Under the pieces are notes generated by a model. The model saw only the letters and a list, made by a program, of their open reading frames with translations, did not search any database and was not told the DNA's origin. Shown here in pieces: positions 6,444 through 46,531 of a DNA stretch of 64,000 nt. The DNA lies in NCBI GenBank assembly GCA_029858565.1, contig JAOUEV010000001.1, forward strand, positions 107,420-171,419, read 5' to 3'. The stretch comes from Nitrospirota bacterium (GTDB lineage: Bacteria > Nitrospirota > UBA9217). Numbering within the stretch: position 1 is the stretch's first letter; every line of letters starts with the position of its first letter. The translations under genes and the position numbers were made by a program.

Positions 6444-6446
6444 AAT

Positions 6447-13574: not shown

Positions 13575-13650
13575 TATCTCGCGCGAAGCCGCAAAGGAAA
13601 GCAATGATCTGACGAACTTCTTTGCGGGCTTAGCGTCTTTGCGAGAGATA
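13575..13650. repeat. palindromic intergenic element copy A (TCTCGCGCGAAGCCGCAAAGG ... CTTTGCGGGCTTAGCGTCTTTGCGAGAGA)
   Basis: imperfect inverted repeat arms 20-30 nt with a 30-nt loop; related copies at 25240 and 46438. Confidence 0.6.
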
Positions 13651-13817
13651 TGATCTGGTCTGTTTATTTGAGAGTTGTGAACTTGAACGCATCCGGAGCC
13701 CTTTCCGGGTGCGTTTTTCATTTTTCTCCAACCGCTTGTGCTTTGCTGTTCTATGCTATAATCAAATCAAACAGCTATAGTTAACTTCACAGGAACTCAT
13801 CTCACAAGGAGGTTGCC

Positions 13818-14135
13818 ATGGTGGTTGCGGAGATCGTCAAGAGGGCTTTTCTGGCAGGGCTTGGTGCGCAGGAGAAGGCGAAGGAGTTCGTCGACGAGCT
13901 GGTAAAGGCCGGGGAGCTTTCAAAGAGCGACGCGGCTGCGATGGTCAAAGAATGGACCGAAAAAGCGCAGCAGAGCACCAAGGACGTGGATGTAAAGCTC
14001 AAGGACGCCGTGGCCGGCATCCTGGAAAAACTGCACATCCCGAATAAGGACGAGTTCGAACGGCTGGAAAAGAAGGTGCAGAGCCTTTCCGCGCGGGTCA
14101 GAAAGCTCGAAGGCGGGGGCGAGGCAGAGGACTGA
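13818..14135 (+). CDS. phasin-family (PHA granule-associated) protein
   Basis: 105 aa, all-helical, Lys/Glu/Ala-rich; similarity to PhaF/phasin N-terminal region; strong AAGGAGG SD; upstream TTGTGC-N15-TATAAT promoter candidate at about 13736..13762. Confidence 0.55.
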   Translation: MVVAEIVKRAFLAGLGAQEKAKEFVDELVKAGELSKSDAAAMVKEWTEKAQQSTKDVDVKLKDAVAGILEKLHIPNKDEFERLEKKVQSLSARVRKLEGGGEAED

Positions 14136-14153
14136 TCGTCCGGGTAGAGCGCT

Positions 14154-15860
14154 ATGTCCTTCCTGGGGTTCTGGAGAAGACATTACCGGGACATTCCCCG
14201 GGTGCGGCATATCCTGATGGTGGCGTCCCGGAACGGGTTCGGCCATCTTGTGGAACAAACAGGTCTGCAGCGGTTCGTGTCCGTGGGCATGAGGTTTCTG
14301 GCGTTCCGGAAACCTCCGCCCATGGTCCATCCGCTCGGAGCGCCCGAACGGCTCCGGATCATGTTCGAGGACCTGGGGCCGACATTTATCAAACTGGGCC
14401 AGGTGCTTGCCTGCCGGCCCGATCTCCTTCCCCTTGAGTATGCGCGGGAACTGGCAAAACTTACCGATTCCGTCGCTCCCTTTCCCTTCCCCGAAGCGCG
14501 AGAGATCATTGAGTCGGACCTGAACGCGGGTCTTGATGAACTGTTCAGCCGATTCGACGTTGTGCCGGTAGCTGCGGCATCGATCGCCCAGGTCCACAGC
14601 GCTGCCCTGCCCGACGGCCGCGAGGTCATGGTCAAGGTCCAACGGCCGAACATCGACCGCATCATTGAGCGCGACACCAGCATCCTGAGCGGGATCGCCG
14701 CCCTCCTGGACACCCACGTGCGCGAGCTTCAGCCCTACAACCTGCCGGGGATCGTGGATGAGTTCGCCCGGACCATCGGCCGGGAGCTCGATTTCTACAT
14801 CGAAGGATCGAACGCCCAGCGGCTGCGCAGGAACTTCGAGGCCGGCGACGTGCTGGTCATACCCGAGATCTACCCGGATCTATCGAGCAGGCGGGTGCTG
14901 GTCATGGAGCGGATCGAAGGGATCCGGATCGACGACGTGGACGGGATCGTCCGGCGCGGCCATGACCGCAAGGAGATAACGAAAAAAGGGGCCGGCGCCT
15001 TTTTCAAGATGGTGTTCCAGGACGGACTGTTCCACGCCGACCCCCATCCGGGCAACATCTTTGTGCTCGCCGACGGACGGATCGGCCTGGTCGACTTCGG
15101 CATCATGGGCCGGGTGACCGAAGAGAACATGGAGCATTTCGCCAACGTCCTGCTTGCGCTCGCGGATCACGATTATGATTCGCTGGCACGTCAGTATGTG
15201 AACCTCGGCTTCGTGTCCGAGGAGACCGTGGACATCGAGAAGTTCCAGCGCGGTCTGCGCGACGACCTGGAGGAGCTGCTGGAGCCTTATTACACCATGA
15301 AGGTCGGGCAAATAGACTTCGGCGTATACGTTGACCGGGTCTCGCGGATCCTGTCGCGGCATAAGCTCCGGCTTCCTCAGAACCTCTACCTCATGGACAA
15401 GGCGCTGATCACGCTTGAAGGACTTCTGAAGCAGCTCGACCCGGAATTCAACTATTTCGAAGCTGCCCAGCCCTACGTGGAGGACCTGATCCGCAAGAGG
15501 CACCAGCCCGCACGGATGCTTCGGCGGGCGCGCAAGAGTTTGGCCGCGATGAACGACGCGGTGATCGATCTGCCGCGCCAGGCGCGATCAGCTCTTGGTA
15601 AGCTGCTTCGCGGCGACGTGGGGGTGAAGCTCCACCATGAGGGCCTGCACCATCTTATCCGCGACCTGGACAAGGCGAGCAACCGGCTGTCATTCAGCAT
15701 CATCACCGCTGCCATTATCGTGGCATCGTCCATTATCATCCACTCGGGGCTCGGCCAAAAGATCTTCGATCTGCCCGTGCTGGGGCTTGCCGGCTATGTC
15801 ATCGCCGGTCTCTTCGGCATCTGGATCTTGATCGGCATCCTGCGGTCGGGACAACTATAA
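14154..15860 (+). CDS. ubiB: ABC1/UbiB family atypical kinase with C-terminal TM helices
   Basis: ABC1 domain motifs (AAASIAQVH, HADPHPGN, DFG); two C-terminal TM segments. Confidence 0.85.
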   Translation: MSFLGFWRRHYRDIPRVRHILMVASRNGFGHLVEQTGLQRFVSVGMRFLAFRKPPPMVHPLGAPERLRIMFEDLGPTFIKLGQVLACRPDLLPLEYARELAKLTDSVAPFPFPEAREIIESDLNAGLDELFSRFDVVPVAAASIAQVHSAALPDGREVMVKVQRPNIDRIIERDTSILSGIAALLDTHVRELQPYNLPGIVDEFARTIGRELDFYIEGSNAQRLRRNFEAGDVLVIPEIYPDLSSRRVLVMERIEGIRIDDVDGIVRRGHDRKEITKKGAGAFFKMVFQDGLFHADPHPGNIFVLADGRIGLVDFGIMGRVTEENMEHFANVLLALADHDYDSLARQYVNLGFVSEETVDIEKFQRGLRDDLEELLEPYYTMKVGQIDFGVYVDRVSRILSRHKLRLPQNLYLMDKALITLEGLLKQLDPEFNYFEAAQPYVEDLIRKRHQPARMLRRARKSLAAMNDAVIDLPRQARSALGKLLRGDVGVKLHHEGLHHLIRDLDKASNRLSFSIITAAIIVASSIIIHSGLGQKIFDLPVLGLAGYVIAGLFGIWILIGILRSGQL

Positions 15861-15973
15861 GAGCAGCAGTAAGGGGTAAGGAGCAAGGAACAGCAAAGCC
15901 GGTGCCGGTGGCTGGGAACAGCCGATATACCAGAGAACGTGGGATCACCTTTCGAATTATTCTCTCCATCTTA

Positions 15974-16002
15974 TTGACGAACCCGACATAGCGGTATATC
16001 AT
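15974..16002 (+). promoter_or_regulatory. sigma70-like promoter TTGACG-N17-TATCAT upstream of mltG
   Basis: hexamers with 17-nt spacer ending 14 nt before ATG 16016. Confidence 0.4.
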
Positions 16003-16015
16003 ATTCGAACCTATC

Positions 16016-17116
<1,101 letters not shown>

Positions 17117-17244
17117 TAAGTGATAAGCAGTAAGCGCTAGAGCAGAAAAAGGGCTAGAGGGCTAAGAAGCAGGATCGAGGATTACAGGATCAGAGGATTA
17201 AAAGGGTAGATGGTAGCCGCGGGCTTTAGCCTGCGTTAGTCATG

Positions 17245-17649
17245 TTACTCGATCATGATCGTATATCCCGCGAACTCCGGTAACGCAGCAAGCATTTCCT
17301 TCATTCCGTCCGTCTTGAACTTTCCGTAGGCCATCGAAGTGTCGGAGAACTTGATGGCCTTTTTGTTCCCGTCGCGCTCGAACTTCCCGCCGCCGAGGAT
17401 ATGCCAGGCTTTGTCGTGAATGAAAAACTTTTCCTTCCTGCTGTCGTAGCTTCCTTCGATGCCCTTGTCCATGCAGAACCGTTCCACGATGTTGGCGTGG
17501 TATTTGGTCAGCTCCTTGGGGGAGAGGATGAGATATATCTCGTTGCTGTTCCATATCTGGACGAACTTGCCCACGGTTGCCGAAGGGATGTCGGTTTTCA
17601 TGATGGAACTGTAGTAAACGGGTGTGTAGTCGATGAATACCATGTACAT
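17245..17649 (-). CDS. hypothetical protein, low-GC (about 50%) relative to flanks
   Basis: intact 134-codon ORF 4 nt downstream of dcd; no family recognised; true start may be Met17601. Confidence 0.35.
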   Translation of the reverse strand: MYMVFIDYTPVYYSSIMKTDIPSATVGKFVQIWNSNEIYLILSPKELTKYHANIVERFCMDKGIEGSYDSRKEKFFIHDKAWHILGGGKFERDGNKKAIKFSDTSMAYGKFKTDGMKEMLAALPEFAGYTIMIE

Positions 17650-17653
17650 GTTC

Positions 17654-18172
17654 TCAGGGCTTTACCTGCTCGATGAATCTTCCCTGATATCGTGCGTGTC
17701 CGTCGCACTTTTCGAACACGAACTGGCAGATCCGCGTGCCGGGATAGAGCGCCAGCGGTCCATGGCCCAGGTTCACGATCTCAAGCACCTGGTGATTCGA
17801 GATGCCCGGGTGCATGAATCCGGCGGTGACGTGCACGGCAAGGCCGAAGCGGGCGAACCTGCTTCTGCCTTCGAGCCTGCCCGAGATATTGTCCGCAAGG
17901 GTGATCTTTTCCCGGGTGATCCCCAGTATCATCTCTCCCGGTTTGATCACCATGTAGCTGCCGTCAGGCACATGCACGGTCCTGGTGATATCCTCGAACC
18001 GGGAATCGTTCTTGATGTGGTAGACCTTGAACTTCTTTTTGAACATCCTGAAATCGTTCCCAAGCGTAAGGTCAACGGACCCCGGACCGACCTGTGACCG
18101 GTCGAGCGGTTCGATCCTGATCGAACCATCAGCCAGTGCTTTCCCTATTTCTTCTCCGACCAGAATGCTCAT
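17654..18172 (-). CDS. dcd: dCTP deaminase
   Basis: 172 aa, dUTPase-like fold motifs (GPGSVDLTLG, PGISNHQVLEIVN, conserved E); typical Dcd length. Confidence 0.9.
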   Translation of the reverse strand: MSILVGEEIGKALADGSIRIEPLDRSQVGPGSVDLTLGNDFRMFKKKFKVYHIKNDSRFEDITRTVHVPDGSYMVIKPGEMILGITREKITLADNISGRLEGRSRFARFGLAVHVTAGFMHPGISNHQVLEIVNLGHGPLALYPGTRICQFVFEKCDGHARYQGRFIEQVKP

Positions 18173-18175
18173 AGT

Positions 18176-19030
18176 TCACTCCCTCTGCCTCGGATCAAGC
18201 GCATCCCTTATGCCTTCGCCGAGCAGATTATACCCCAGCACGGTAATGAGGATGGCGAGGCCGGGAAAGGCTGAGAGCCACCAGGCGATCTCGATGTTGT
18301 CCTTGCCTGACGAGAGCAGGCTGCCCCAGCTCGGTGTGGGCGGCTGGACGCCGAGGCCAAGGAAGCTCAGGCCTGATTCCACGAGGATCGCGCCGCCGAT
18401 GCCCATGGTAGCGGAAACAAGGATGGGGGAGAGGCCGTTCGGCAGGATGTGCTTGAAGATGATCCTGAAATCCGTTGCTCCGAGCGCCCTGGCCGCGGTG
18501 ACGTATTCCCGCTCCTTGATGGCGATGAACTCCGCCCGAACGAGGCGGGCGGGCTCCATCCAGCTGGTGAGACCGATCACGATCATGATGTTCATGATAT
18601 TCGGCTCCAGGATGGCGATGACCGCGAGTACCAGGAAGATGGTGGGGATGCTCAGCATGATATCCACGAAGCGCATGAATGCGCTGTCGATGTATCCTCC
18701 GTAGAATCCCGCGATGGCGCCGACCAGGATGCCGATGAGGGTGGCGATGCCGATGGCCACGAAGCCCACTTCGAGCGAGATGCGCGCGCCGTAGATCATG
18801 CGTGCCAGAACGTCGCGGCCCAGCTCGTCAGTGCCAAAGGGATGCTCCACGGTCGGCCCCACGAGGATATGCTTTACGTCGATCTTCGACGGATCGTGCG
18901 GGCTGATCCACGGCGCAAGGACAGCGACCACGAACACGGCAAGCACCAGCAAACCGCCGATGACGGACAGCCAGTTCCTGCGGAAGGTCCGGAAAGTTTC
19001 GGTTGTTGTAAGGGTTATGTTGTTTGGCAT
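18176..19030 (-). CDS. ABC transporter permease, peptide/nickel family (DppC/OppC-like)
   Basis: 6 TM helices, EAA-like motif region (ARALGA...FKHILPN). Confidence 0.85.
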   Translation of the reverse strand: MPNNITLTTTETFRTFRRNWLSVIGGLLVLAVFVVAVLAPWISPHDPSKIDVKHILVGPTVEHPFGTDELGRDVLARMIYGARISLEVGFVAIGIATLIGILVGAIAGFYGGYIDSAFMRFVDIMLSIPTIFLVLAVIAILEPNIMNIMIVIGLTSWMEPARLVRAEFIAIKEREYVTAARALGATDFRIIFKHILPNGLSPILVSATMGIGGAILVESGLSFLGLGVQPPTPSWGSLLSSGKDNIEIAWWLSAFPGLAILITVLGYNLLGEGIRDALDPRQRE

Positions 19031-19031
19031 G

Positions 19032-20003
19032 TCACTTCAGTCTCACTCTCGGGTCCGTGAGCGCGTACCCGATGTCCGCGAGGAAATTCCCGAGCATGGT
19101 GAGGCCCGCGGCAGGGACGAGCACACCCATGGCAACGTTGTAATCCCGCGAGAAGACGGCCTGGTACATGAGCTGACCCATGCCGGGGATGCCGAAGACC
19201 TGCTCCATGATCACGCTGCCGCCGATGATGCCGGGCAGGGAGAGGCCGAGGATCGTGATCACGGGCATGAGCGCGTTCCGGAGCGCATGCTTGTACACGA
19301 CCACGTTCTCGGAAAGTCCCTTGGCCCGGGCGGTCCTGATGTAGTCCTGGCGCAGGACCTCCAGCATGTTGTTCCGCATGTATCTTGAGAAACCCGCCAG
19401 ACCGCCGACAGCAGAGACAAATACCGGCAGGACCAGATGGTTCGCCTTGTCCATGAGCCTGTCCCAGCCTGACAGGCCGGTCAGGTCAAGGCTCTGGAGC
19501 CCGGAGATGGGCAGCAGGCCCCACTGGACACCGAAGAAATAGATCAGGAGCAGGGCGAGCCAGAAATGGGGCATGGAATAACCCACGAACACGAAGATCG
19601 TGGTGAAACGGTCGAGGCTGGAATACTGGTGCGTTGCCGAGAGGATGCCTATGGGAATGGCGAGCAGCAGCACCACTGCGAGCGACAGAAGATTGATCGT
19701 GAGGGTGATGGGCAGGCGTTCGAGGATCTTGTCCTTCACCTTGCGGCCGTCGGCAAAGGCCTCGCCGAAATCCAGGGTAACGAACTTGCGGAGCCAGGTG
19801 ATGTACTGCTTGTGCACCGGCTGGTCAGCGCCATAGAGCTTCCGGAGCCGCTCCCGCGCCTCGGCAGAGGCCTTGGCCGAGAACTCCATCTGCGCTTCCG
19901 CAGGGCCGCCGGGCGCCATGTGCATGATCGTGAAAGAAAGGACCGTTATCCCGAGCAGGATGGGGACCATGAGCAAAAGGCGCTTTAGACTATAGAAGAG
20001 CAT
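19032..20003 (-). CDS. ABC transporter permease, peptide/nickel family (DppB/OppB-like)
   Basis: N-terminal MLFYSLKRLLLMVPILLGITVLSF typical of DppB; EAA motif (ARAKGLSE). Confidence 0.85.
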   Translation of the reverse strand: MLFYSLKRLLLMVPILLGITVLSFTIMHMAPGGPAEAQMEFSAKASAEARERLRKLYGADQPVHKQYITWLRKFVTLDFGEAFADGRKVKDKILERLPITLTINLLSLAVVLLLAIPIGILSATHQYSSLDRFTTIFVFVGYSMPHFWLALLLIYFFGVQWGLLPISGLQSLDLTGLSGWDRLMDKANHLVLPVFVSAVGGLAGFSRYMRNNMLEVLRQDYIRTARAKGLSENVVVYKHALRNALMPVITILGLSLPGIIGGSVIMEQVFGIPGMGQLMYQAVFSRDYNVAMGVLVPAAGLTMLGNFLADIGYALTDPRVRLK

Positions 20004-20008
20004 GGGGG

Positions 20009-20299
20009 CTAGTCTTTGACCTTGTAGACAAGGTCAAAGGGATTGGCAGGCTGGGAAAGCTTGATACCCGTGAACTGGCCGCGCATGGCTTTTTCGACCG
20101 GCTTGTGGTCGAACTCCATGGCGTCCACCTTCTGGGTGAAATCCGTGCCATTACCCTTGATGTGGATGGTCTCTCCTACGGCAAGGTCGCCGAAATCGAG
20201 TTTCACCGCGGCAATGGAATTCTTCTCAAAATACCTGATGACCGATCCGATCCGCTCTTCCATGGGGTCAATGATAGTATAAAATCCCCGTTCTTTCAA
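20009..20299 (-). CDS. small beta-barrel protein resembling EF-Tu domain 2 (hypothetical)
   Basis: 96 aa; GDLAVGETIHIKGNGTDFTQKVDAMEFDHKPVEKAMRGQFTGIKL resembles translation-factor domain II; first gene of the permease operon. Confidence 0.35.
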   Translation of the reverse strand: MKERGFYTIIDPMEERIGSVIRYFEKNSIAAVKLDFGDLAVGETIHIKGNGTDFTQKVDAMEFDHKPVEKAMRGQFTGIKLSQPANPFDLVYKVKD

Positions 20300-20444
20300 G
20301 AAAAAACCATGATGCCCCCGTCCGGGGGAGACGGCGAGAACGGCCGATAACCTTCAATCATTTTAACCTCATAGCGCTTGACAAGGCAGGGGGCGGCGAG
20401 TATTATATGGTCTGCCGTGAAGGGGCCAGGGAAGGTCAAATGCG

Positions 20445-20521
<77 letters not shown>

Positions 20522-20588
20522 GTTTAATTGCGGATTGCGGATTGTAGATTGCGGATTGCACGTTAATCCACAATCCCAAATTTAGAAT
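20522..20588. repeat. heptamer-repeat hairpin spacer (TTGCGGA units then ATCCACAATCCCAAAT)
   Basis: aattgcggattgcggattgtagattgcggattgca ... ttaatccacaatcccaaa. Confidence 0.7.
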
Positions 20589-20665
20589 GCGCCTGTAGCT
20601 CAGCTGGATAGAGCAACAGCCTTCTAAGCTGTGGGTCAGGGGTTCGAGTCCCTTCAGGCGCGCCA
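20589..20665 (+). tRNA. tRNA-Arg (anticodon TCT)
   Basis: acceptor GCGCCTG/CAGGCGC, anticodon stem ACAGC/GCTGT with loop CTTCTAA, T-arm GGTTCGAGT, encoded CCA. Confidence 0.9.
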
Positions 20666-20817
20666 ATTCAAATGCGGAACGGGGAATGCGGAATTTGGAA
20701 TGAAATACCGCAGATCCCTGACCCGAGGGGTCAAAGGGGAGAGGCTCCCCTGAGATGAATATCGGGGGAGATTCCAGAGGGGGCTGGCCCCCGCTGGGGA
20801 GCCCTTTAGGGGCGACT

Positions 20818-20849
20818 GGTCAGGGGTTCGAGTCCCTTCAGGCGCGCCA
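20818..20849 (+). pseudogene. orphan 32-nt duplicate of the 3' end of tRNA-Arg(TCT) (T-arm + acceptor 3' strand + CCA)
   Basis: ggtcaggggttcgagtcccttcaggcgcgcca is identical to 20634..20665; no matching 5' half upstream. Confidence 0.8.
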
Positions 20850-20855
20850 TATAAC

Positions 20856-20975
20856 AATTGCGGATTTGTAAAACCGCAGCACCAATAACTGAAAAGTGTA
20901 TTCCTGATTGCAGGGTGTGATAGTCGGGCCGGAACGAAATGATTACAATCCGCAATCCGAAATCCGCAATCGGGA
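20856..20975. repeat. heptamer-repeat hairpin spacer between the tRNA-Arg fragment and tRNA-His
   Basis: caattgcggatttgtaaaaccgcagc and caatccgcaatccgaaatccgcaatcggg arms. Confidence 0.65.
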
Positions 20976-20986
20976 AATAGAAACAT

Positions 20987-21063
20987 GGTGGGCGTAGCTC
21001 AGTTGGTAGAGCACCAGGTTGTGGCCCTGGTGGTCGCGGGTTCAAGCCCCGTCGCTCACCCCA
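20987..21063 (+). tRNA. tRNA-His (anticodon GTG) with encoded G-1
   Basis: extra 5' G opposite discriminator C; anticodon stem CCAGG/CCTGG with loop TTGTGGC; encoded CCA. Confidence 0.9.
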
Positions 21064-21070
21064 ATCAATT

Positions 21071-21148
21071 GCAGTGCGGAGTGCAGAGTGCGAAGTGCGG
21101 AGTGAAGCATCGTCATTCATTCCGAATTCCGCATTCCGGACTCCGCAT
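21071..21148. repeat. heptamer-repeat hairpin spacer (GTGCGGA/GTGCGAA units vs TCCGCAT units)
   Basis: gcagtgcggagtgcagagtgcgaagtgcggagtg ... cattccgaattccgcattccggactccgcat. Confidence 0.7.
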
Positions 21149-21154
21149 TTTATT

Positions 21155-21231
21155 GCGCCCGTAGCTCAGCTGGATAGAGCGTTGGCCTCCGAAGCCAAAG
21201 GTCCCGCGTTCGAATCGCGGCGGGCGCACCA
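21155..21231 (+). tRNA. tRNA-Arg (anticodon CCG)
   Basis: acceptor GCGCCCG/CGGGCGC, anticodon stem TTGGC/GCCAA with loop CTCCGAA, encoded CCA. Confidence 0.9.
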
Positions 21232-21234
21232 TCT

Positions 21235-21323
21235 AATTGCGGATTTTCGATTGCGGATTGCGGATTGCAATACATAAAGCGGATTTTTGTAAATCCGCAA
21301 TCCGAAATCTACAATCCGAAATC
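21235..21323. repeat. heptamer-repeat hairpin spacer with central AAGCGGATTTTTGTAAATCCGC hairpin
   Basis: attgcggattttcgattgcggattgcggattgcaa ... aatccgcaatccgaaatctacaatccgaaatc. Confidence 0.7.
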
Positions 21324-21328
21324 GTCAT

Positions 21329-21405
<77 letters not shown>

Positions 21406-21572
21406 TAAGTAAATTTTGATTTCGGAATGCGAAATGCGGAATGAAAAGCGTTGTTTCGCTCCGGCGAGCGAGGAAAAAATTCCTCTGATAACCCCATTTT
21501 CCTGTTGCATCCGGTACTAAAGATGCGTATAATACGCTCCTTGTCGCAAGGTATTGTATTCCGTTTTTTAAC

Positions 21573-21648
<76 letters not shown>

Positions 21649-21765
21649 TATAAAACACCGAGAGCAGTGGGCGACTGAACGCACACTGCTCTCATTGTTA
21701 TTGCGGCATTCAAAGGGCAGGTCGTCTGGAGAACCTATCCCGGGGCCATGCGTTCCTATAACGTC

Positions 21766-21848
21766 GCGAGAGTGGCGGAACTGGCAGACGCGCTGGTCTT
21801 AGAAGCCAGTGGGCAACCGTGGGGGTTCAAGTCCCCCCTCTCGCACCA
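21766..21848 (+). tRNA. tRNA-Leu (anticodon TAG), long variable arm
   Basis: acceptor GCGAGAG/CTCTCGC, anticodon stem CTGGT/GCCAG with loop CTTAGAA, 13-nt variable arm, encoded CCA. Confidence 0.85.
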
Positions 21849-21857
21849 TACATCAAA

Positions 21858-21887
21858 TGCGGATTGCGGATTGCGGAATGCGGAATG
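21858..21887. repeat. heptamer repeat (TGCGGAT x2, TGCGGAA x2) between tRNA-Leu and tig
   Basis: tgcggattgcggattgcggaatgcggaatg. Confidence 0.7.
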
Positions 21888-21948
21888 AAATAATCCCATC
21901 CCACCACGTTCAATCTCTGCTTTATCAATAGCGAACAGGAGCAAGGAC

Positions 21949-23223: not shown

Positions 23224-23265
23224 AATAGAACCAGCGGAAAAGACTGAACCTGACAGGAGAATTAC

Positions 23266-23871
<606 letters not shown>

Positions 23872-23876
23872 CCGCA

Positions 23877-25118
<1,242 letters not shown>

Positions 25119-25239
25119 GGGCGCAGGAATAGTCATTAAGTAACCATGTTATCAAGAGATTGAGGCGAGTCTTCAATCTCTTTTTTTTCACACCTTCAGT
25201 TCATGAGGAACGGAGAAAGCAGGACCAGAAAAGAGCTTG

Positions 25240-25336
25240 TCTCGCGCAAAGCCGCAAAGAACGCAAAGGAAATCCAAGAGCCATAGCTGCAGCAATTTAT
25301 TGACTTTCTTTGCGGCTTGGCGCCTTTGCGCGAAGA
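25240..25336. repeat. palindromic intergenic element copy B (TCTCGCGCAAAGCCGCAAAGAACGCAAAGG ... CTTTGCGGCTTGGCGCCTTTGCGCGAAGA)
   Basis: about 30-nt inverted arms around a 35-nt loop; spurious ORFs on both strands translate the repeat (FFAAWRLCAKK). Confidence 0.7.
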
Positions 25337-25363
25337 AGTCTTATCTTCTCGGTACGGTATGTT

Positions 25364-25957: not shown

Positions 25958-26069
25958 GTTAGGGCCCCTTTTTCTGCGCACCGGTATTTCAAAATCCTGC
26001 ATCTTGATTCTTTTTCCCGGCTCCTGTATCCTATATTCTGTCTTCTGACTCCTGAATTTGGAGGGTCAC

Positions 26070-27596: not shown

Positions 27597-27680
27597 GGCC
27601 GGACAACAGGCGGACATTATTTCACGGTCACTTGATTTGTTCGTTGACTCTCCGGAAAATCCCATTATAATGAACGAATT

Positions 27681-32685: not shown

Positions 32686-32737
32686 AAACTCCTCCTCAAG
32701 AAACCCAGCGTTAGAACGCGGACGTTCTGCTCCCGCA

Positions 32738-33349: not shown

Positions 33350-33389
33350 GCATCTTCATAGCCGTTCTCTGAGTCTTCAGTGTCTACAA

Positions 33390-34343: not shown

Positions 34344-34488
34344 GGCAATACGGATAGAACAGAAGGACCATTGATCGCACGAAGGCACGAAGTCACGAAG
34401 AAAGGCAATTTCACTCTCCTGGTCTTGATCAGAGTTGACTCCTCCGTGTCTTCGTGGCTTCGTGCGAGACTGCTTTTGACATCGTCCG

Positions 34489-37044: not shown

Positions 37045-37050
37045 AGACTT

Positions 37051-38804: not shown

Positions 38805-38907
38805 AGAATCTTATTTAGACACTGAGGACACTGAAAAAATATGAATGACTCAACATCAGAAGTTTCTTCGTCTTCTCATATGTTGTCAGTGTCCTCAGTG
38901 TCTAAAA

Positions 38908-39372
38908 TCAGCTGTATTTGCTTAATATCTCATCAATTGTTTCCGGCGTCACCGGTCCGAACAGTTCGTCGTCCACCATCATGGCAGGCGCGCGGTCGCA
39001 GGCGCCGAGGCATGAGGCAGGGAGGAGCGTGAACCTGTTGTCTCCGGTTGTCTCGCCGTATCCGATCCCGAGCTTTGTGCTGATCAGCTTATACAGGTCA
39101 TCATGCCCCAGGGACCAGCAGACCATGCTGTCGCAGAGCGCGATCACATGGCGGCCGACAGGCTTGCGGAAGATGAAGCTGTAGAACGTGGCAACAGCGT
39201 CCAGTTCGGCAGGCGTCATGGAGAGCTGCGCTGCAACATCCCGCAGGCTCGCGTCGGATACCCATCCTCGCTTTTTCTGCACCACGCGCAAGGCCTCGAT
39301 GGCCGCCGCTTCCGGCCGTTCGCAGTGCTTCAGTTCCTCGGATATTTCCTGTTTTTCCTGCTCAGTCAGCAT
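38908..39372 (-). CDS. nuoE: NADH-quinone oxidoreductase subunit E
   Basis: thioredoxin-like 2Fe-2S Cys pattern (CDSMVC...CLGAC). Confidence 0.9.
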   Translation of the reverse strand: MLTEQEKQEISEELKHCERPEAAAIEALRVVQKKRGWVSDASLRDVAAQLSMTPAELDAVATFYSFIFRKPVGRHVIALCDSMVCWSLGHDDLYKLISTKLGIGYGETTGDNRFTLLPASCLGACDRAPAMMVDDELFGPVTPETIDEILSKYS

Positions 39373-39446
39373 ATCCAGTCAATTCCTGCCTCCAGGGGGG
39401 AGAGGGGCCTATATATCTGATCTTACCCTGCGTCTCCGTGTCCAAT

Positions 39447-41195
39447 TTATCTATCCAAATCCGCCAGAATAAAATCAATGCTCCCCAGGATCGCCATGAG
39501 GTCGGCGATCATCAGACCTTTTGCGATCTTCGGCACCATCTGCATGTGCGGGAACGAAGGCGTGCGGATGCGGGTGCGGTAGGAGTGGATGCCTCCGTCG
39601 CTCACGAGATAATATCCGTTGCTGCCCTTTGTCGCTTCGATGCCCATGAACGCCTCGCCCGCTGGTATGACCGGGCCCCAGGATAGGCCCAGAAAATGGG
39701 TGATCAGGGTCTCAATGTCCTTCAGGGTCCGTTCCTTGCGCGGCGGGGTCGTGAGCGGGTGATCGGATTTATAGGATCCCTCGGGCATGTTCTTCATGCA
39801 CTGTTCAACGATCCGCATGCTCTGGCGGATCTCCTCGATGCGGACCACGGCGCGGTCATAGCAGTCGCCGTTCACTGCAGTGGGGATATCGAAGTCGAAC
39901 ATCTCGTAGCCCGAGTAAGGCCGCTTCCTTCGAAAGTCCCAATCGAGTCCGCAGGCGCGGAGACCCGGTCCGGTCACTCCCCACTCGACCGCATCTTCGA
40001 GCGAATAGGCGCCGACTCCCCGGGTCCTTCCTTTGAAGATGCTGTTCCGCATGACGATACTGTCGTATTCCTTGAGCCGGTGCGGAAGATAGGCGAGGAA
40101 ATCCCTCACCAGCCGGTCCCAGCCTTTTGGCAGGTCCTGAGAAACACCGCCGATCCGGAACCAGGCCGGGTGCATGCGGCCGCCGCAGACCGCTTCGACG
40201 ATCTCAAAGACCTTTTCCCGGTCAGAGAAAGTGTAGAACACCGGAGACAAGGCCCCCACGTCCTGGGCAAAGGTGCCGTACCAGACCAGATGGCTCTGGA
40301 TGCGGAACAGCTCTGCCATCATCACGCGGATAACCTTTACCCGGTCGGGCACCTCGATCCCCGCGAGCTTCTCGACCGCCAGTACATATGCCAGGTTGTT
40401 CATGACACCGCCGAAGTAGTCGATGCGGTCCGTGTAGGGAATGAAGGTGTGCCAGGTCTGGCGCTCGGCCATCTTTTCCGCGCCGCGGTGATGATAGCCG
40501 ATGTCCGGGACAGCGTCCACGATCTCTTCTCCGTCGAGCTGCAGGATGATGCGCAGGAGACCGTGCGTACCCGGGTGCTGGGGGCCAAGGTTCAGGAACA
40601 GGTGGTCCGTGCCGTCCTTTGCCGGCGCCATGCCCCATTCCTCGGGCCGGAACTTGAGCGCCTGCTGCGCAATGTCCATCTGGTCCTCGGGCATGCGGAA
40701 CTGTCCCATTTCCGTTGCCCGCGCGGGATGCTCCTTCCTGAGCGGGTGGCCTTCCCATGCGGGCGGCAGCAGGATGCGCTTGAGATGGGGGTGGCCGTTG
40801 AAGCGGATGCCGAAGAGGTCCCATGCTTCCCGTTCGTACCAGTTCGCGTTCCGCCAGAGTCCGGTGATGGACGGCAGGGTGTGAGTATCTCCCAGGAGCG
40901 GGACCTTGATCCTGATGTCCTCGTTCCGGTCAAAGGACAGCAGGTGGTACACAACAGTGAAATCGGACATGGGCTGGTCTGGTCTGTTCGTCCGCGTGCG
41001 TTCGTCAATGACCGTGAGGTCATAGAGCATTTTGTAGGGCCGGCCGATCTTCGTCTTGAGATGCAGGAGTACGTCGGCGGTCCGGTCAGGGGAGATCCAG
41101 AGCGTGGGGATGTTGTCCTTTGCGGGCTGTACCGCGAGGATCGCGGGGCCGAAGGAGCTGCTTAGGTCGGCGATGATAGGGTTAGGAAAAGTCAT
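39447..41195 (-). CDS. nuoCD: fused NADH-quinone oxidoreductase subunits C and D
   Basis: 582 aa; N-terminal NuoC (30-kDa) region then NuoD (49-kDa) region. Confidence 0.9.
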
Positions 41196-41376
41196 AAAAA
41201 CAAGCCATGTTTTACCGCAGAGGACGCGGAGGACGCCGAGAAAAGCCTAAAAAAAGCGCAAGAGCCGATCCTGTTTTAGAAGGATAAAACTAATGCAAAC
41301 AGGCTCATATGCTCCATAAGAATATATCTGACCTTTGAATTTCTCTGCGTCCTCTGCGGTGAAAAAGCCGTTTTTG

Positions 41377-41991
41377 TTAGACTTCATCGGGTGAACGCAG
41401 CACCGAAGCCTTCACCCGTTCCGCCCGCTTCATATCCCTCATGCATGGCGGTTCGGGAGCGGTCGTATCCTGCCGTCCCGCGACCCAGGACAGGGGGCGT
41501 TTCTCCTTGCCCACCTTGGCGCTCAGGAGCAGGAGCCCTTCCATGAAGGCTTCGGGCCGGGGAGGGCAGCCGGGAACGTAGACGTCAACGGGCAGGAGCT
41601 TGTCGACTCCCTGGACCACGCTGTAGATATCGTACATGCCGCCGGAATTGGCGCAGGAGCCCATGGAGATTACCCAGCGGGGCTCCATCATCTGTTCGTA
41701 GAGCCGTTTGATCACCGGCGCCATCTTGATGAACACCGTGCCGGCCACGATCATGAGGTCAGCTTCGCGGGGCGTGCCCCGGAGCACTTCTGCGCCATAC
41801 CGCGCGATGTCGTACTTGCTCGTAAGGCTGGCGGCCATCTCCACGTAGCAGCACGAGAGGCCGAAATTGAAGGGCCAGATCGAGTTCTTCCGGCCCCAGG
41901 CGACCATGTCCTCAAGCCGCGTCAGGAGCAGGCTTTGGCGCACTGCGTCGTCAATGTCTGGGATGCTGCTTCTGGTTGTAGACCAGTTCAT
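41377..41991 (-). CDS. nuoB: NADH-quinone oxidoreductase subunit B
   Basis: N2 cluster Cys motifs ([20 protein letters not shown]); C-terminal about 40-aa extension. Confidence 0.95.
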
Positions 41992-42136
41992 ACGTTATAA
42001 TCCCCGGAGCGGGTCAGCTTTAGAGCTTTAAGCGGTAGAGCGGTAAGCAGCCACAACCAGTTATAGAGCATTAAGCGGTAGAACCGTTAGCAACCGACTG
42101 TTTATCTTCCCTTTGTGCCTGCTTACGGCTTATCGC

Positions 42137-42553
42137 TTACTGCTTGCGACTCGATTTAACCTTTCCCCAGTCAAGAGCTCCCTGACGCAAGATGTACATG
42201 AACGCGACGGCGAACACCCCGGTGAACAGCAGGACCTCCACGTACCCGGTCCACCCGATCTCCCTCACCGACAGTGCCCAGATGTACAGATAGACCGCCT
42301 CGACATCGAAGATAAGAAAGAACATGGCGATGAGGTAGAACTTGACGTCGAACCGGCCGCCCACGGTGCCGGTGGACTGTACCCCGGACTCATAGGGCTC
42401 ATCGGTCGCGCGCTCATGGTGGCGCTGGCCAAGCAGGGCCGAGAGCGCAACAATGAACGCGACAATGGTGACCGTCGCAAGGAAGTACAGGACCAGCGGG
42501 AACAAAGGACCATCCAAGGCGATTTCGCTCCTGTTATTGCTTTTCTCAAGCAT
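42137..42553 (-). CDS. nuoA: NADH-quinone oxidoreductase subunit A
   Basis: 3 TM helices, NuoA/ND3 length; start set at internal MLEKSN Met. Confidence 0.8.
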   Translation of the reverse strand: MLEKSNNRSEIALDGPLFPLVLYFLATVTIVAFIVALSALLGQRHHERATDEPYESGVQSTGTVGGRFDVKFYLIAMFFLIFDVEAVYLYIWALSVREIGWTGYVEVLLFTGVFAVAFMYILRQGALDWGKVKSSRKQ

Positions 42554-42702
42554 ACCGAGTGCCCGGGGGAATGTCAAGCAGGCATAAGCGGAATGCGCGG
42601 TCCGCGCGGGTCTTTCATTCGGCCATATAGCCGTTGACAAGTCCTGTCAACGCTGCTAATCTACACAGGTCTGCGCCAAACCACCATACTGAAGGAGAGA
42701 AC

Positions 42703-43416
42703 ATGAAGAGAACGGTCACCATGCTAGTGTGTCTGTGCCTGATAGCGCCGGCCGCGATAGCGGCGGAGAAGGGCAAGTTCAAGACCAAGAAAGAACAGCT
42801 GAGCTACAGCCTCGGCTATGATATGGCAACCAATTTCAAGCGGACCGAGCTCGACGTCGATCCCGCCATGATCATGCAGGGAATGAAGGATGCCCAGGCC
42901 GGAAAACCGAAAATGTCAGAAGAGGAGATGCGCGAGGTCCTGATGGAGGCTCAGCAGAAGTTCCGGACCAAGCAGCAGGAGCTGATGGCGAAGCAGCAGG
43001 AACAGCGCAAATCACAGGGGGAGAAGAATAAGAAGGAAGGCGAGGCTTTTCTTGAAGAGAACAAGAAAAAACCGGGCATCGTGACGCTGCCGAGCGGTCT
43101 GCAGTACAAGATGCTTGTGGAAGGAAAGGGCAAATCGCCCAAGGCAACGGACAAGGTTACGGTCAACTATCGGGGGACGCTGATCGACGGAACCGAGTTC
43201 GACAGTTCCTATAAGCGCAATCAACCGGCGACGTTCGCGCTGAACCAGGTCATCAAGGCCTGGACCGAAGGCGTCCAGCTCATGAAAGAAGGCGGGAAGA
43301 TCCAGCTTTTTGTGCCGTCCGAGCTTGGATATGGAGACCGGGGCGCGGGAGCGCAGATCGGACCCAACGCCGTGCTGATCTTCGAGGTCGAGCTGATCTC
43401 GGTGGCGGCTGAGTAG
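42703..43416 (+). CDS. fkpA: FKBP-type peptidyl-prolyl cis-trans isomerase with signal peptide (FkpA-like)
   Basis: signal peptide, helical dimerisation region, C-terminal FKBP domain (GLQYKMLVEG...YGDRGAG); GAAGGAGAG SD. Confidence 0.85.
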   Translation: MKRTVTMLVCLCLIAPAAIAAEKGKFKTKKEQLSYSLGYDMATNFKRTELDVDPAMIMQGMKDAQAGKPKMSEEEMREVLMEAQQKFRTKQQELMAKQQEQRKSQGEKNKKEGEAFLEENKKKPGIVTLPSGLQYKMLVEGKGKSPKATDKVTVNYRGTLIDGTEFDSSYKRNQPATFALNQVIKAWTEGVQLMKEGGKIQLFVPSELGYGDRGAGAQIGPNAVLIFEVELISVAAE

Positions 43417-43448
43417 GCCGGATCGGTGCCGGCGGCCCGGAGGATACC

Positions 43449-44096
43449 GTGGTGAAACAACTCTTCAGAGTGTTGATCGCATCTGCGATACTGCTGGCGG
43501 GTGTCCTGGCGGCAGGCGCGGAAGCGGCTGAACAAACACCAACGACCGCTGACGCATGGTTCTTTCGCGGAGGGGAGCTCGCGTCGCAGGGCGCTCTGGA
43601 AGCGGCGCATAATGCGTTCTCAAAAGCGATCGAGATGAATGCGCGCATGGCCGAGGCCTTTGTCAGCAGGGGCATGGTGCACGAGCGGTTGAGAAGAACG
43701 AAGGAGGCGATCGCAGATTATACATCCGCTCTCGCCATCAACAGGAACTTCGCGCAGGCATACAACAACCGGGGGATGGTCCTGTTCCGCGGCCAGCGGT
43801 TCCAGCCTGCCTTGGACGACTTGAGCGAGGCTGTCAGCCTTGATGGGAATAACTCGTCCTATCGGGCTAACCGGGCTGCCGTCTATGCCCGCCTGAAGAA
43901 CTACGACAAGGCCATCGCGGACTATACCGCGGCGGTCCTGATCGATCCGGACAATGCCGATGCCTACGCCGGTCGGGGAGCCGCTCACTATTCCCGGGGG
44001 GATCGCTCCAAGGCCGTGACCGACCTGAAATTGGCCTGTTCGCGAGGCAGCGAAGCAGGATGCAGGAGCCTGAAGGCTGTGAACGGCCGAAAGTGA
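43449..44096 (+). CDS. secreted TPR-repeat protein
   Basis: signal peptide then 5 TPR-like 34-aa repeats (AxxYxxRG consensus). Confidence 0.7.
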   Translation: MVKQLFRVLIASAILLAGVLAAGAEAAEQTPTTADAWFFRGGELASQGALEAAHNAFSKAIEMNARMAEAFVSRGMVHERLRRTKEAIADYTSALAINRNFAQAYNNRGMVLFRGQRFQPALDDLSEAVSLDGNNSSYRANRAAVYARLKNYDKAIADYTAAVLIDPDNADAYAGRGAAHYSRGDRSKAVTDLKLACSRGSEAGCRSLKAVNGRK

Positions 44097-44103
44097 GGCG
44101 ATA

Positions 44104-44679
44104 ATGAAAGTGCTGGCTATCAATGGAAGCGCGCGCAAGGACGGGAACACGGCGCTGCTGCTCAACACGGTCATGGCCGAGCTTTCGACCCAGGGGATCG
44201 AGACCGAGCTCTACCAGCTGGCGGGCAAGCCCATCCAGGGCTGCATTGCCTGTTATAAGTGTTTTCAGAACAAGAACAAACGGTGCGCAGTGGACAAGGA
44301 CATTGCCAACGAATGCATCGAGAAGATGCTTTCCGCCGACGGCATCCTCCTGGGTTCGCCGACCTATTTTGCCGACCTGTCCGCAGGCATGAAGGCCCTG
44401 ATCGAACGGAGCGGCATGGTCGCCAGGGCCAACGGGAACATGTTCCGCAGAAAAGCCGGGGCAGGGGTCGTAGCCGTTCGACGGGCCGGCGCCATGCACG
44501 TATTCAGCTCGCTGAACGCCTTCTTTCTGATCAGCGAAATGGTCATCCCGGGATCGAGCTACTGGAACCTGGGGCGGGGCAGGGAACCGGGCGAGGTCAG
44601 GAACGACGAGGAAGGCATGCAGACCATGAAGACGCTGGGCCAGAACATGGCCTGGCTGATGAAGCAGCTGGGGAAATAA
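44104..44679 (+). CDS. NADPH-dependent FMN reductase / iron-sulfur flavoprotein-like
   Basis: MKVLAINGSARKDGNT flavodoxin-like N-terminus, compact Cys cluster CIACYKC...C. Confidence 0.7.
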   Translation: MKVLAINGSARKDGNTALLLNTVMAELSTQGIETELYQLAGKPIQGCIACYKCFQNKNKRCAVDKDIANECIEKMLSADGILLGSPTYFADLSAGMKALIERSGMVARANGNMFRRKAGAGVVAVRRAGAMHVFSSLNAFFLISEMVIPGSSYWNLGRGREPGEVRNDEEGMQTMKTLGQNMAWLMKQLGK

Positions 44680-44885
44680 CGGCGAATCTTTAAAAGCTAT
44701 TTATCGCACGAAGCCGCGAAGACACGAAGAAAAATAAAGGCGACTCTTATGAGCCGCCTTTATTTGTGAGTGATGGTAAGTCTTGCCCCCTCTCCCGACA
44801 AGGATGAGGGGCCGCATACGTGATGATCTTGGCGGTTGCTTTTTGCTGTTTCGCACTTCCTTGCTGCTTGCTACGGGCCCTGCCT

Positions 44886-45383
44886 CTACTTGAGCTTCTT
44901 GATCACCGCACGCAGGATGTCCGCCCGCGTCAGGATCCCGATCAGTTTCCCCTTCTCATCCACTACCGGCAAGCGCCGGATCTTCTTGTCGTCCATGATC
45001 TCCACGGCTTTCGAGACGTTCATGTCCGGTCTGATCGTCTGGGGCTTCCCGGTCATGATGTCGCCGACCGTATCTCCGATCCTGCGCTCCGGCAGCCGTT
45101 CGCCGAGCATGTACTTCAGCAGGTCCTTGACCGTATGCGCCTTTCCCATGCCGAGCATCGAAAGCACATCCGCCTGGGTAATGATCCCGAGGAGCTTGTA
45201 GTCGCGGTCCACGACCGGCAGTCCGCTGATGTTCCGCTCGGTCAGGATATGCGCGACATTCACGATGGTGTCGTACTTCTGGACCGTCAGGACCCCGCGG
45301 GTCATCACGTCCTGCACCAGGATCTCCTGGCCCATGGAGGAACGGAGGTGGCTGTCTGCGGGTTTGAGAGCTTTCTTCGGCAT
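44886..45383 (-). CDS. CBS domain pair protein
   Basis: two CBS motifs (ILTERNISGLPVVD, IMDDKKIRRLPVVDEKGKLIGILTRADIL). Confidence 0.75.
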   Translation of the reverse strand: MPKKALKPADSHLRSSMGQEILVQDVMTRGVLTVQKYDTIVNVAHILTERNISGLPVVDRDYKLLGIITQADVLSMLGMGKAHTVKDLLKYMLGERLPERRIGDTVGDIMTGKPQTIRPDMNVSKAVEIMDDKKIRRLPVVDEKGKLIGILTRADILRAVIKKLK

Positions 45384-45582
45384 GGCACGCTCCTGCGCTG
45401 AAAATAAGAACTCCGCCGCAATTCCGCGACGATAGCTGATCTAACGGTGCATACTATACCATCCCGAAGGGCTCAAGAAAAGAGGGAAATGAAGGATTGA
45501 CGGGGCAACCGCTGCAGAGCGCCTGTTGATCGCAAAAAGGGGTTGTCTTTACCCACAAGATCGAAGTCGTCGGAAACAGCGG

Positions 45583-46383
45583 CTATCCATGCTTCTGCGC
45601 GATCTTCTCGAACATCATAACCATGCCCGTGCCGAGCTCGAAGACCGATTCGATGGGAAGATGATCAGCCGCGGTGGAGTCGAAGAATATCTTGAGCATG
45701 GATTCCATGTCCCCGTCAGCATGCCAGTAGCAGAACAGCACCGGCATTTTCGGCAGGGGATAGAGGATGACGGTCACATCAGCGCCAAAGTCGCCGGTGG
45801 ACCGTTTTCCGCCAAAGAGGGTGATGATGTCCTCGAAAAGTTCCGCATGATCATCCGCCAGTTTCGCGAGCGCCTGTTCGGCCCGCCTGTGAAAGAGCGG
45901 TCCGCGCTGGTTTGCGCCGGCCAATTCCCGGAAAGGGATCCAGTTTCCTGATGGGGTCGTGCCCTTGCTATGGACGACGTAGCCGAGCAGCGGGATGACA
46001 AGGCCGCTGTGGGTGTGGCATTCTGATGCGACGCTCCCTTCCGCATCCACTGAGAAGTCCCTGCCCAGACAACGTACGATCAGTTTGCCTGCCTCAAAGC
46101 GTCCTGCCAGGCGGCCAGCTGATGAAGCGAGATCGACCTCTTTCATCCTCGAGCGCAGCTCTTCAACGATACCTGACCGTATCTTGTCGATGTCCGGCAG
46201 CACCTCGACCAGATCAATGATCTGCTGCGCATCCTCCCTGGCCAGATGCGGGCAGCTGGTGACCGTGCGCTCGGCTTTAAGCACTGCGGTCGCAAAGGCG
46301 AAACAGGACGGGAAACCACAGTCCCTGCAGTTGGTCTGCGGGAGTCTGCGGTAGATGTCTAGGGGGCTTTTGAGAGGGGGCAT
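45583..46383 (-). CDS. putative Fe-S cluster-binding domain protein with DUF3786-like C-terminal region
   Basis: N-terminal CRDCGFPSCFAFA motif; start set at MPPLK because the upstream codons are encoded by palindromic repeat copy C. Confidence 0.5.
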   Translation of the reverse strand: MPPLKSPLDIYRRLPQTNCRDCGFPSCFAFATAVLKAERTVTSCPHLAREDAQQIIDLVEVLPDIDKIRSGIVEELRSRMKEVDLASSAGRLAGRFEAGKLIVRCLGRDFSVDAEGSVASECHTHSGLVIPLLGYVVHSKGTTPSGNWIPFRELAGANQRGPLFHRRAEQALAKLADDHAELFEDIITLFGGKRSTGDFGADVTVILYPLPKMPVLFCYWHADGDMESMLKIFFDSTAADHLPIESVFELGTGMVMMFEKIAQKHG

Positions 46384-46437
46384 GGAAAGGACAAAGGTAT
46401 TAAGATTTAGGCGCAAACCAACAAAAGAAAATCTTTT

Positions 46438-46531
46438 TCTCGCGCAAAGACGCCAAGCCGCAAAGAAAGGCAATATCAAACCAAGTCATCTGGTTAAAAT
46501 TTTCTTCGCGCCTTTGCGGCTTTGCGCGAGA
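46438..46531. repeat. palindromic intergenic element copy C (TCTCGCGCAAAGACGCCAAGCCGCAAAGAAAGG ... CGCGCCTTTGCGGCTTTGCGCGAGA)
   Basis: about 30-nt inverted arms, 35-nt loop; closest to copy B. Confidence 0.7.

Follow-up and report, generated by a model that had tools for sequence, protein, structure and literature searches.

Inverted arrays of a CGCnAAGn octamer in a Nitrospirota genome form a dispersed non-coding repeat, tentatively of a REP/REPIN-like kind

What are the palindromes that lie in the gene spacers of a 64,000-nucleotide stretch of a Nitrospirota bacterium (lineage UBA9217; GenBank assembly GCA_029858565.1, contig JAOUEV010000001.1, positions 107,420 to 171,419 of the forward strand)? 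This stretch, hereafter the window, is the whole of our view of the source genome. An initial annotation had placed three copies, here called A, B and C, at 13575, 25240 and 46438; these positions are correct, and all three copies are palindromic. It had further proposed an intergenic family, repeated at the nucleotide level and dispersed, which we uphold and find to be widespread in other genomes, and had read the copies as probable transcription terminators or attenuators, which we do not support. A, B and C belong, with a sister copy, D, to one dispersed non-coding repeat, which is built from directional half-sites, each with a T(C/T)TC-N cap, about three tandem CGCnAAGn octamers and an A-rich tail; a convergent pair of half-sites makes the palindrome. 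What such an element does is a matter of graded probability: we favour, at roughly 0.42, the view that it works like a dispersed hairpin repeat of the REP/REPIN type (repetitive extragenic palindromes, REPs, and their inverted doublets, REPINs).

The arms of A, B and C consist of CGCnAAGn repeated two to three times in tandem and preceded by a TCTC cap. Copy A (13575-13650), the most degenerate of the three, has two octamers per arm (CGCGAAG and CGCAAAG facing CTTAGCG and CTTTGCG), and copies B (25240-25333) and C (46438-46531) have three. The extent given initially for copy C was right, while copy B ends at 25333 rather than 25335. Likewise, the description of inverted arms around a loop stands, with the amendments that the arms are tandem octamers and that the loops span about 25-47 nt rather than 30-35 nt. 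In copy C, the arms (46438-46468 and 46501-46531) are 31 nt each, 87% complementary and spaced by 32 nt; the right arm of copy B and the left arm of copy C are 94% complementary across 36 nt. The peptides FFAAWRLCAKK and FFAPLRLCARR, reported as spurious translations of the repeat, are exact. The sister copy D (34372-34470), in the nuoG-nuoH spacer, carries the cap as TCTCG / GATCG, the GAAAGGCAAT extension and units of the type CACGAAG in both arms. None of these elements is assigned a strand, and all four have the same polarity, with the purine-rich array first and the pyrimidine-rich array second, that is, convergent. A one-sided extension, GAAAG(N)CAAT, stands beside one arm in A, C and D and in inverted orientation in B, which identifies these copies as paralogues; the combination in D of CACGAAG in both arms with the cap and extension of C shows that units are homogenised within one element. 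In the window, GCGCAAAGCCGCAAAG with up to 3 mismatches matches 11 times against 1.09 expected, about ten times chance, and none of 100 shuffles gave 11. The degenerate pattern CRCNRAGNCRCNRAG has 23 matches against 6.4 expected, and its perfect matches number 18, every one in a spacer; they make up A, B, C, D and three lone half-sites described below. Copy D, two of these half-sites (at 50836 and 52195) and two nonamer palindromes of the nuo operon had escaped the initial annotation.

How far does the family extend beyond this genome? The pattern CGCAAAGNCGCAAAGN{20,50}CTTTGCG, with 21 specified bases and, by our own estimate, about 8 chance matches expected in 596 Gb, was found at no fewer than 119 genome loci in more than 10 phyla. 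Hosts among the matches listed include Acidobacteriota (many of them Pyrinomonadaceae), Bacteroidota, Planctomycetota, Verrucomicrobiota, Chloroflexota, Chlamydiae, Cyanobacteria, Myxococcota, Alpha-, Beta- and Gammaproteobacteria, Leptospira, Actinomycetota, Gracilibacteria and Heliomicrobium, and isolates are represented as well, for instance Sorangium cellulosum So0157-2, Thioalkalivibrio, Flavobacterium, Hallella and Sphingomonas. One anatomy holds across hosts: an A-rich flank, the cap, units whose position 8 is G or A, an A-rich tail, the loop and then the mirror image. The cap has the composition T(62%) Y(86%) T(64%) C(61%) A(53%). Curated plasmid and phage collections yielded one matching cyanobacterial plasmid and no phage record.

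Viral contigs of IMG/VR allowed unit arrangements to be counted at equal spacing. CGCAAAG was convergent at 23 loci, divergent at 9 and direct at 23, and the sister unit CACGAAG was convergent at 16. Of two scrambles, CCGAAAG was found at 0 loci and CGACAAG at 2, which represent one near-identical sequence that is not an array. Scrambled units of equal composition are thus essentially absent, which indicates that the unit sequence matters. Convergent is preferred over divergent orientation (23 vs 9 loci). In the divergent loci, GAGA and TCTC adjoin the loop; the cap therefore never leaves the 5' side of the purine array, which makes the half-site a directional module. Matches that run pyrimidine-first are accordingly divergent pairings of the half-site. 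We had also considered them as ends of a long parent element, as such junctions lie 4-5 kb apart in IMG/VR, and rejected this; the DNA between the divergent junctions in two contigs (L230 and L213) encodes Mu-like head and tail/baseplate proteins and no recombinase. The direct-orientation loci are mostly long arrays or iteron-like repeats.

Several viral sites are worth recording in their own right. Octamer palindromes stand in intercistronic spacers, between Mu-like head genes and between tail/baseplate genes, often divergent with the cap at the loop (L230 at 286-355 and 4592-4659; L213 at 5178-5239, 9009-9061 and 9961-10022; L237 at 3918-3969). In L229, at 633-760, a CACAGAGAG nonamer palindrome comes immediately after a CGCAAAG-type element and carries the same TTTTTCAC cap; the cap is common to different unit families, which may be direct neighbours. 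Direct repetition of the unit is seen in L259/L260 (about 6007-6053 and 3081-3127), L261 (9497-9632), L262, L268 and L270; some of these contigs have long direct arrays, one of which starts as (CACAAAGG)n, changes to (CGCAAAGA)n and then to (GTACAAAG)n, and others carry iteron-like repeats of about 68 nt with three CGCAAAG units each. The viral direct arrays could be origins or operator arrays.

Within the unit, constraint is sharply position-specific. Counting mismatches in the arm that the scan pattern fixed at only one inner unit, we found 0-5% at positions 1-3 and 5-7 and 14-30% at position 4, whose commonest variant, C, produces an A·G mismatch and no wobble pair. As the core positions are fixed, positions 4 and 8 barely covary between the arms and the C variant forms A·G, CGC-n-AAG is constrained as sequence and not for the stem alone. 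Over 126 elements, the number of units per arm has its mode at 3 (range 2-6); the two arms have equal numbers in 46% of elements, against 35% if they were independent (r = 0.36), and the gap in convergent pairs has a median of 29 nt (range 4-137 nt). The polarity extends to other units: among tandem-type hairpins of any unit, at loci not selected for unit, purine-rich 5' arms outnumber pyrimidine-rich ones by 37 to 12.

Does the structure make these elements terminators? The hairpins that the initial annotation expected are indeed predicted to be stable, with folding energies of -31.6 to -47.8 kcal/mol and z-scores of -2.6 to -5.4: on the plus strand, copy A reaches -31.6 kcal/mol (z -3.3), copy B -38.5 kcal/mol (z -2.6) and copy C -40.5 kcal/mol (z -5.2), and on the minus strand copy C reaches -47.8 kcal/mol (z -5.4). 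The predicted stems of about 25-30 bp are broken by 1x1 mismatches, mainly at both n positions of the octamer. A stable, GC-containing hairpin in a spacer is what the elements share with intrinsic terminators, and three observations would suit the proposal that A, B and C are Rho-independent terminators or attenuators: this stability, the TTTTAT that follows copy C, and the 3' regions in which copy A and a lone plus-strand half-site lie (44699-44732; TTATCG, then CACGAAG C CGCGAAG A CACGAAG, then an A-rich tail). The latter had been described as a weaker relative of the repeat at about 44700; it is related, as a lone half-site of the sister unit CACGAAG and not as a copy. Intrinsic terminators, however, have a U-tract and a loop of 3-8 nt, whereas A, B and C lack a U-tract, have far larger loops and carry a stem of 25-30 bp with regular mismatches. 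A terminator scan left A, B and C unflagged (loops of 25-47 nt, no T-run after them) and flagged the adjacent canonical terminators: that of alaS (13685-13726, plus strand; scan span 13685-13716; a 14-pair stem with a T-run), that of clpX (25154-25190, plus strand; scan span 25154-25182; a 12-pair stem with T8, conserved in relatives), both separate from the repeat, and a terminator-like hairpin without assigned strand at 44732-44765 (15 pairs, flanked by an A-run and a T-run), itself separate from and directly 3' of the 44699 half-site. In Rfam, only tRNAs reach the gathering score in the window, and A, B and C have no match at E ≤ 1.

The gene context is no more favourable. Terminators mark the 3' end of a transcription unit, whereas this family occupies spacers of all sorts, also inside operons and between divergent starts. 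Gene identities were assigned with NCBIfam and Pfam (alaS, clpX, engB; nuoB, nuoCD, nuoE, nuoF, nuoG, nuoH and nuoI on the minus strand; a DUF3786/FeS gene, also on the minus strand), and we limit gene contexts to those so supported, since greedy longest-ORF (open reading frame) calling mis-called recA, clpP and an MscS-like gene. Copy A lies in the alaS 3' region, between the stop codon (13547) and the canonical terminator of that gene. Copy B lies between the clpX terminator and the engB ATG (25364), 3' of the former and 30 nt 5' of the latter; the clpX terminator is retained in a relative, L001, that is without element B. Copy C occupies a divergent spacer, between the starts of the DUF3786/FeS gene (46383, minus) and of a plus-strand gene (ATG 46570). 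Copy D and two nonamer palindromes, neither with an assigned strand, fill the nuoG-H, nuoE-F and nuoB-CD spacers of one operon: the palindrome at 38814-38906 in the nuoE-nuoF spacer is built of CACTGAGGA units in 31-nt arms that are 94% complementary, and that at 41210-41364 in the nuoB-nuoCD spacer of CGCRGAGGA units with the cap TTTTAC/TTTCAC. An efficient terminator at these places would break the operon. With elements inside essential operons and tRNA clusters, we conclude that they are not terminators, and regard the terminator or attenuator reading as highly improbable.

The clpX-engB spacer offers a view of how such a site evolves. We gathered 80 metagenomic EngB loci and inspected the 26 closest relatives. 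In L001 (77% EngB identity), the clpX terminator is conserved and element B is absent. In a closer relative (82% EngB identity), the first base of each of three independent Logan contigs (L002, L003 and L004) falls within the right arm TTCTTTGCGTCTTGGCGCCTTTGCGAGA, 57 nt before engB; the element B ortholog is present in this species and breaks short-read assemblies. Most of the 26 relatives have an inverted pair of tandem 7-11-nt units in the spacer, and the unit differs by lineage. In the arrays found 60-220 nt before the engB match in L124-L149, whose counterpart in the window is the spacer 25119-25363, the unit is ACAGAGG / ACAGAAG in L128, L133, L136, L140, L142 and L144, CAGGAGT in L130, L138, L139, L141 and L146, GAGGTTAAGG in L131, L137 and L145, CAGTGATT in L124, L127 and L129, and GGCAGTC / GACTGCATCAT in L125. 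In several relatives, the clpX terminator is nested in the array loop and its stem is made from the innermost unit; in L136 and L144, which are of this kind, the T-run interrupts the right arm. At this site the architecture is conserved and the unit sequence is not.

Are the elements mobile? Direct repeats flanking them are distributed as in the shuffled control, so that no target-site duplication is apparent. A miniature inverted-repeat transposable element (MITE) was considered for the inverted ends and rejected, as there is no target-site duplication above control, the loops are not conserved, and the kilobase-sized segments that might have been a parent element (in L230 and L213) carry ordinary phage genes. 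A few loop duplicates are clearly recent (L016/L028 and the L064 pair). Self-complementarity of the loops is weak (mean z 0.49, z > 2 in 12%), which argues that fold-back copying of a whole half is not general; on the same ground, we rejected a fold-back origin of the whole element.

Two kinds of signal thus have to be accommodated. The structural signal consists of the convergent preference, the correlated arm sizes and an architecture that an orthologous site keeps through the turnover of its units; the sequence signal consists of a six-position core and an oriented cap found across phyla and phages, the absence of scrambles, and the existence of lone and direct arrays. We rate a REP/REPIN-like element as the most likely because REP/REPIN is a known system that combines both. 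REPs are likewise short intergenic repeats that occur as singlets and as inverted doublets forming long hairpins, also inside operons; they show no target-site duplication, belong to different families at orthologous sites of related species and are constrained in sequence by a trans-acting partner. The conserved 5' tetranucleotide of REPs has its likeness in the conserved 5' cap T-Y-T-C-A of the array family. In such a scheme, the constraint on the unit sequence suggests that a sequence-specific trans-acting process spreads and maintains the half-sites, and copies would survive only in spacers. From their positions in operons and tRNA clusters, copies are probably co-transcribed with their neighbours, and the transcript of either strand is predicted to fold into an interrupted stem of about 25-30 bp. 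Such a stem could stand in the way of 3' exonucleases, offer a site for processing or hide the start region of the cistron that follows. That copies are transcribed, fold in the cell and affect mRNA is in this scheme suggested by position and prediction.

A good deal weighs against this reading. The REP unit is a small imperfect palindrome, whereas the half-site described here repeats its unit directly in tandem and contains no palindrome; each REP family is confined to a lineage, whereas the CGCnAAGn family crosses phyla; and MITEs and REPINs are copied whole, whereas loops here are not conserved between copies, being mostly unrelated (median similarity of 0.33 within and 0.29 between genomes). 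REP/REPINs also come with the gene of a cognate REP-associated tyrosine transposase (RAYT, of the Y1/HUH type) that is usually flanked by REPs, and here only 64 kb of the source genome are in view. Neither in the window nor among the neighbours in about 150 loci was a mobilising enzyme found, and an all-against-all BLASTP of 2016 ORFs recovered no neighbour family in more than 10 of the roughly 150 loci. Constraint seems to act on the sequence rather than on pairing: mismatches between arms concentrate at unit position 4 and the variable position 8, and complementarity there is 50% vs 37% expected at position 8 and 75% vs 74% at position 4. Folding has no sense bias either, being better for the sense strand in 11 and for the antisense strand in 16 of 27 elements with a defined sense strand, and nothing suggests that selection targets the sense transcript in particular. 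Finally, direct arrays of CGCAAAG equal convergent pairs in number among the viral contigs. We do not count the family as a member of REP/REPIN proper, because its half-site is a tandem array, and no RAYT gene was found in the window or among the neighbours.

Could the hairpin be incidental? The elements might be sites on double-stranded DNA bound by a protein that recognises tandem 7-9-bp units, whether these are arranged convergently, divergently or directly, be it an iteron- or operator-type binder, a global regulator, or a nucleoid or partition protein. Ribbon-helix-helix proteins bind such arrays, direct and inverted, as in the 8-bp metboxes of MetJ, the 7-bp heptads of omega and the 8-bp period of ParG, and these precedents speak for a binding site. 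So do the conservation of six of eight unit positions (0-5% mismatch) next to two that vary and barely covary, the cap that stays 5' of the array whatever the pairing orientation, the lone half-sites and direct arrays, and the preferred size of about three units; binding was also proposed for the paired octa- and heptanucleotide sites of Geobacter metallireducens (Aklujkar et al. 2009, PMC2700814). We nevertheless hold this view to be doubtful, as the at least eight different unit families in the window would need many cognate proteins, an operator would not be expected to keep its architecture and change its unit in orthologous spacers, the copies adjoin housekeeping genes that have nothing in common, or lie in operon interiors and tRNA spacers, and no candidate protein was found. 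A related proposal, which we consider unlikely, sees the half-site (T-Y-T-C-N cap, about three CGCnAAGn or CRCnRAGn units, A-rich tail) as the recognition array of a conserved trans-acting candidate factor. Such a factor, which many phyla and phages would have to share, could be a protein reading tandem 8-nt units or an enzyme by which arrays are installed or mobilised; one possibility is repeat addition at DNA ends, which would lead to the convergent geometry with the cap outermost, to independently made arms and to the lack of target-site duplication.

Quite unlikely, in our view, is an origin as a by-product of replication in place, in which slippage of 7-9-nt units and quasi-palindrome template switching would create the arrays with neither mobility nor a dedicated function. 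The span of 2-6 units per arm, the homogenised units of D (CACGAAG in both arms with the cap and extension of C), the innermost unit that doubles as the clpX terminator stem in L136 and L144, and the lack of both target-site duplication and RNA strand bias would fit, and over-representation of bacterial heptamers has been attributed to slippage (a view cited in Rehm et al. 2015, PMC4692102). This would leave unexplained the same cap and unit across phyla and the absent scrambles; moreover, loops are only weakly self-complementary (mean z 0.49; z > 2 in 12%), variable positions are not copied from arm to arm, and the narrow three-unit mode is unlike free slippage.

The REP/REPIN-like reading concerns a family that fits a described class of inverted tandem 7-9-nt intergenic arrays, itself unexplained. 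In Geobacter metallireducens, 24, 21 and 8 opposite-strand site pairs, each of 3-5 tandem octa- or heptanucleotides at variable distance from the partner, form classes 1-3 of 'predicted global regulator binding sites', for which global regulators or IHF/HU were proposed as binders (Aklujkar et al. 2009, PMC2700814). Common to both are intergenic opposite-strand pairs, 3-5 tandem units of 7-8 nt, variable spacing and several families per genome, whereas the units differ (GTTGCTYN, TCTCCGTS(Y) and MTYCTGA there), the Geobacter classes were reported as specific to G. metallireducens while the CGCnAAGn family crosses phyla, and the insertion sequences noted there at fixed distance were not seen at CGCnAAGn elements. 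Xanthomonas genomes carry 70-75 convergent pairs of GGGAATC heptamers each, most of them transcribed and without a function found, and Nostoc has the unit GGGGA(C/T)T (Rehm et al. 2015, PMC4692102). These and the cyanobacterial STRR heptamers are likewise tandem units in spacers, with a preferred copy number of about 4; in Xanthomonas, the polarity is also the same (the G/purine-rich strand after the upstream ORF, the C/pyrimidine-rich strand before the downstream ORF), as is the occurrence at orthologous sites with varying length and sequence. The Xanthomonas and Nostoc units, in contrast, are capable of forming G-quadruplexes, CGCnAAGn is not; their period is 7 nt rather than 8 nt, and a conserved cap is undescribed for them. 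TAACTGA heptamers of Beggiatoaceae, Cyanobacteria and Bacteroidetes lie near start codons without ribosome-binding sites, have no evident vehicle and were proposed to be bound by S1, Csp or CsrA proteins (MacGregor 2015, PMC4679880). Their spread across phyla without an evident vehicle and their association with start sites of weak or absent Shine-Dalgarno sequence (7/9 in the window) resemble what we see; their unit is another, and they are almost all direct (one indirect in 170 sets). The CGCnAAGn unit itself was not found described in a limited literature search, in which sequence-string queries gave primer noise.

Regarding start sites, 7 of the 9 genes directly after a pyrimidine-rich arm have an anti-Shine-Dalgarno duplex weaker than -4.5 kcal/mol, compared with 18 of 39 other genes, a difference that is not significant; the starts concerned are 6447, 25364, 34343, 38804, 41195, 46383 and 50905, and some of these start codons are uncertain. 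Shine-Dalgarno depletion after pyrimidine-rich arms is therefore suggestive only. Two further lone half-sites are on the minus strand: one at 50836-50866 (TCTCG, CGCAGAG A CGCGGAG G CGCAGAG, AAAAG), upstream of an NnrU-like gene (50905), and one at 52195-52221 (CACGGAG C CACGGAG), which abuts a putative start at 52217. Inverted arrays of other units lie at 6376-6451 (GCGGATT) and 57185-57360 (GTGCGGA). Four perfect ACGAGAA heptamers at 6999-7036, in the spacer between a LigT-like gene and recA, have a loosely complementary CTNGTCN partner downstream, to 7075. A promoter-like TTGATT-N17-TATCCT at 26004-26032, upstream of an MscS/cNMP-binding channel gene, is conserved in three species (about 2130-2160 in L001 and 755-785 in L002); the pyrimidine-rich stretch around it is superficially like a repeat arm, but is none.

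The seven-tRNA cluster at 20525-21890 has GCGGATT/GCGGAAT/GCGGAGT heptamer arrays in nearly every spacer, with heptamers 3' of one tRNA and their complement 5' of the next forming hairpins between tRNAs; one such hairpin joins 21236-21266 to 21292-21322 (87% complementarity). In the same cluster, the 3' 32 nt of tRNA-Arg(tct) (20634-20665) are duplicated exactly at 20818-20849, about 150 nt downstream of the gene, which resembles an attL/attR scar left by the integration of a small or decayed element at the tRNA.

Finally, we would like to place these elements into the wider context of bacterial spacers. Inverted arrays of 7-9-nt units fill the spacers of many environmental bacteria, with scattered earlier records from cyanobacteria, Geobacter, Xanthomonas and Beggiatoa. 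New here are that one octamer family with a defined cap and position-specific constraint spans phyla and phages, that an orthologous spacer retains its architecture while the unit sequence turns over, and that arrays are placed inside essential operons and tRNA clusters. There are practical consequences as well: arrays break short-read assemblies, as seen in the three Logan contigs that start inside the element B ortholog, they seed spurious ORFs such as that encoding FFAPLRLCARR, and they can mislead terminator predictors and annotators into calling terminators or small RNAs. If the half-site is indeed a recognition array, this would jointly explain the six fixed positions, the constant orientation of the cap and the absence of scrambles, and the identity of the partner factor would turn the arrays from a curiosity into a testable system.

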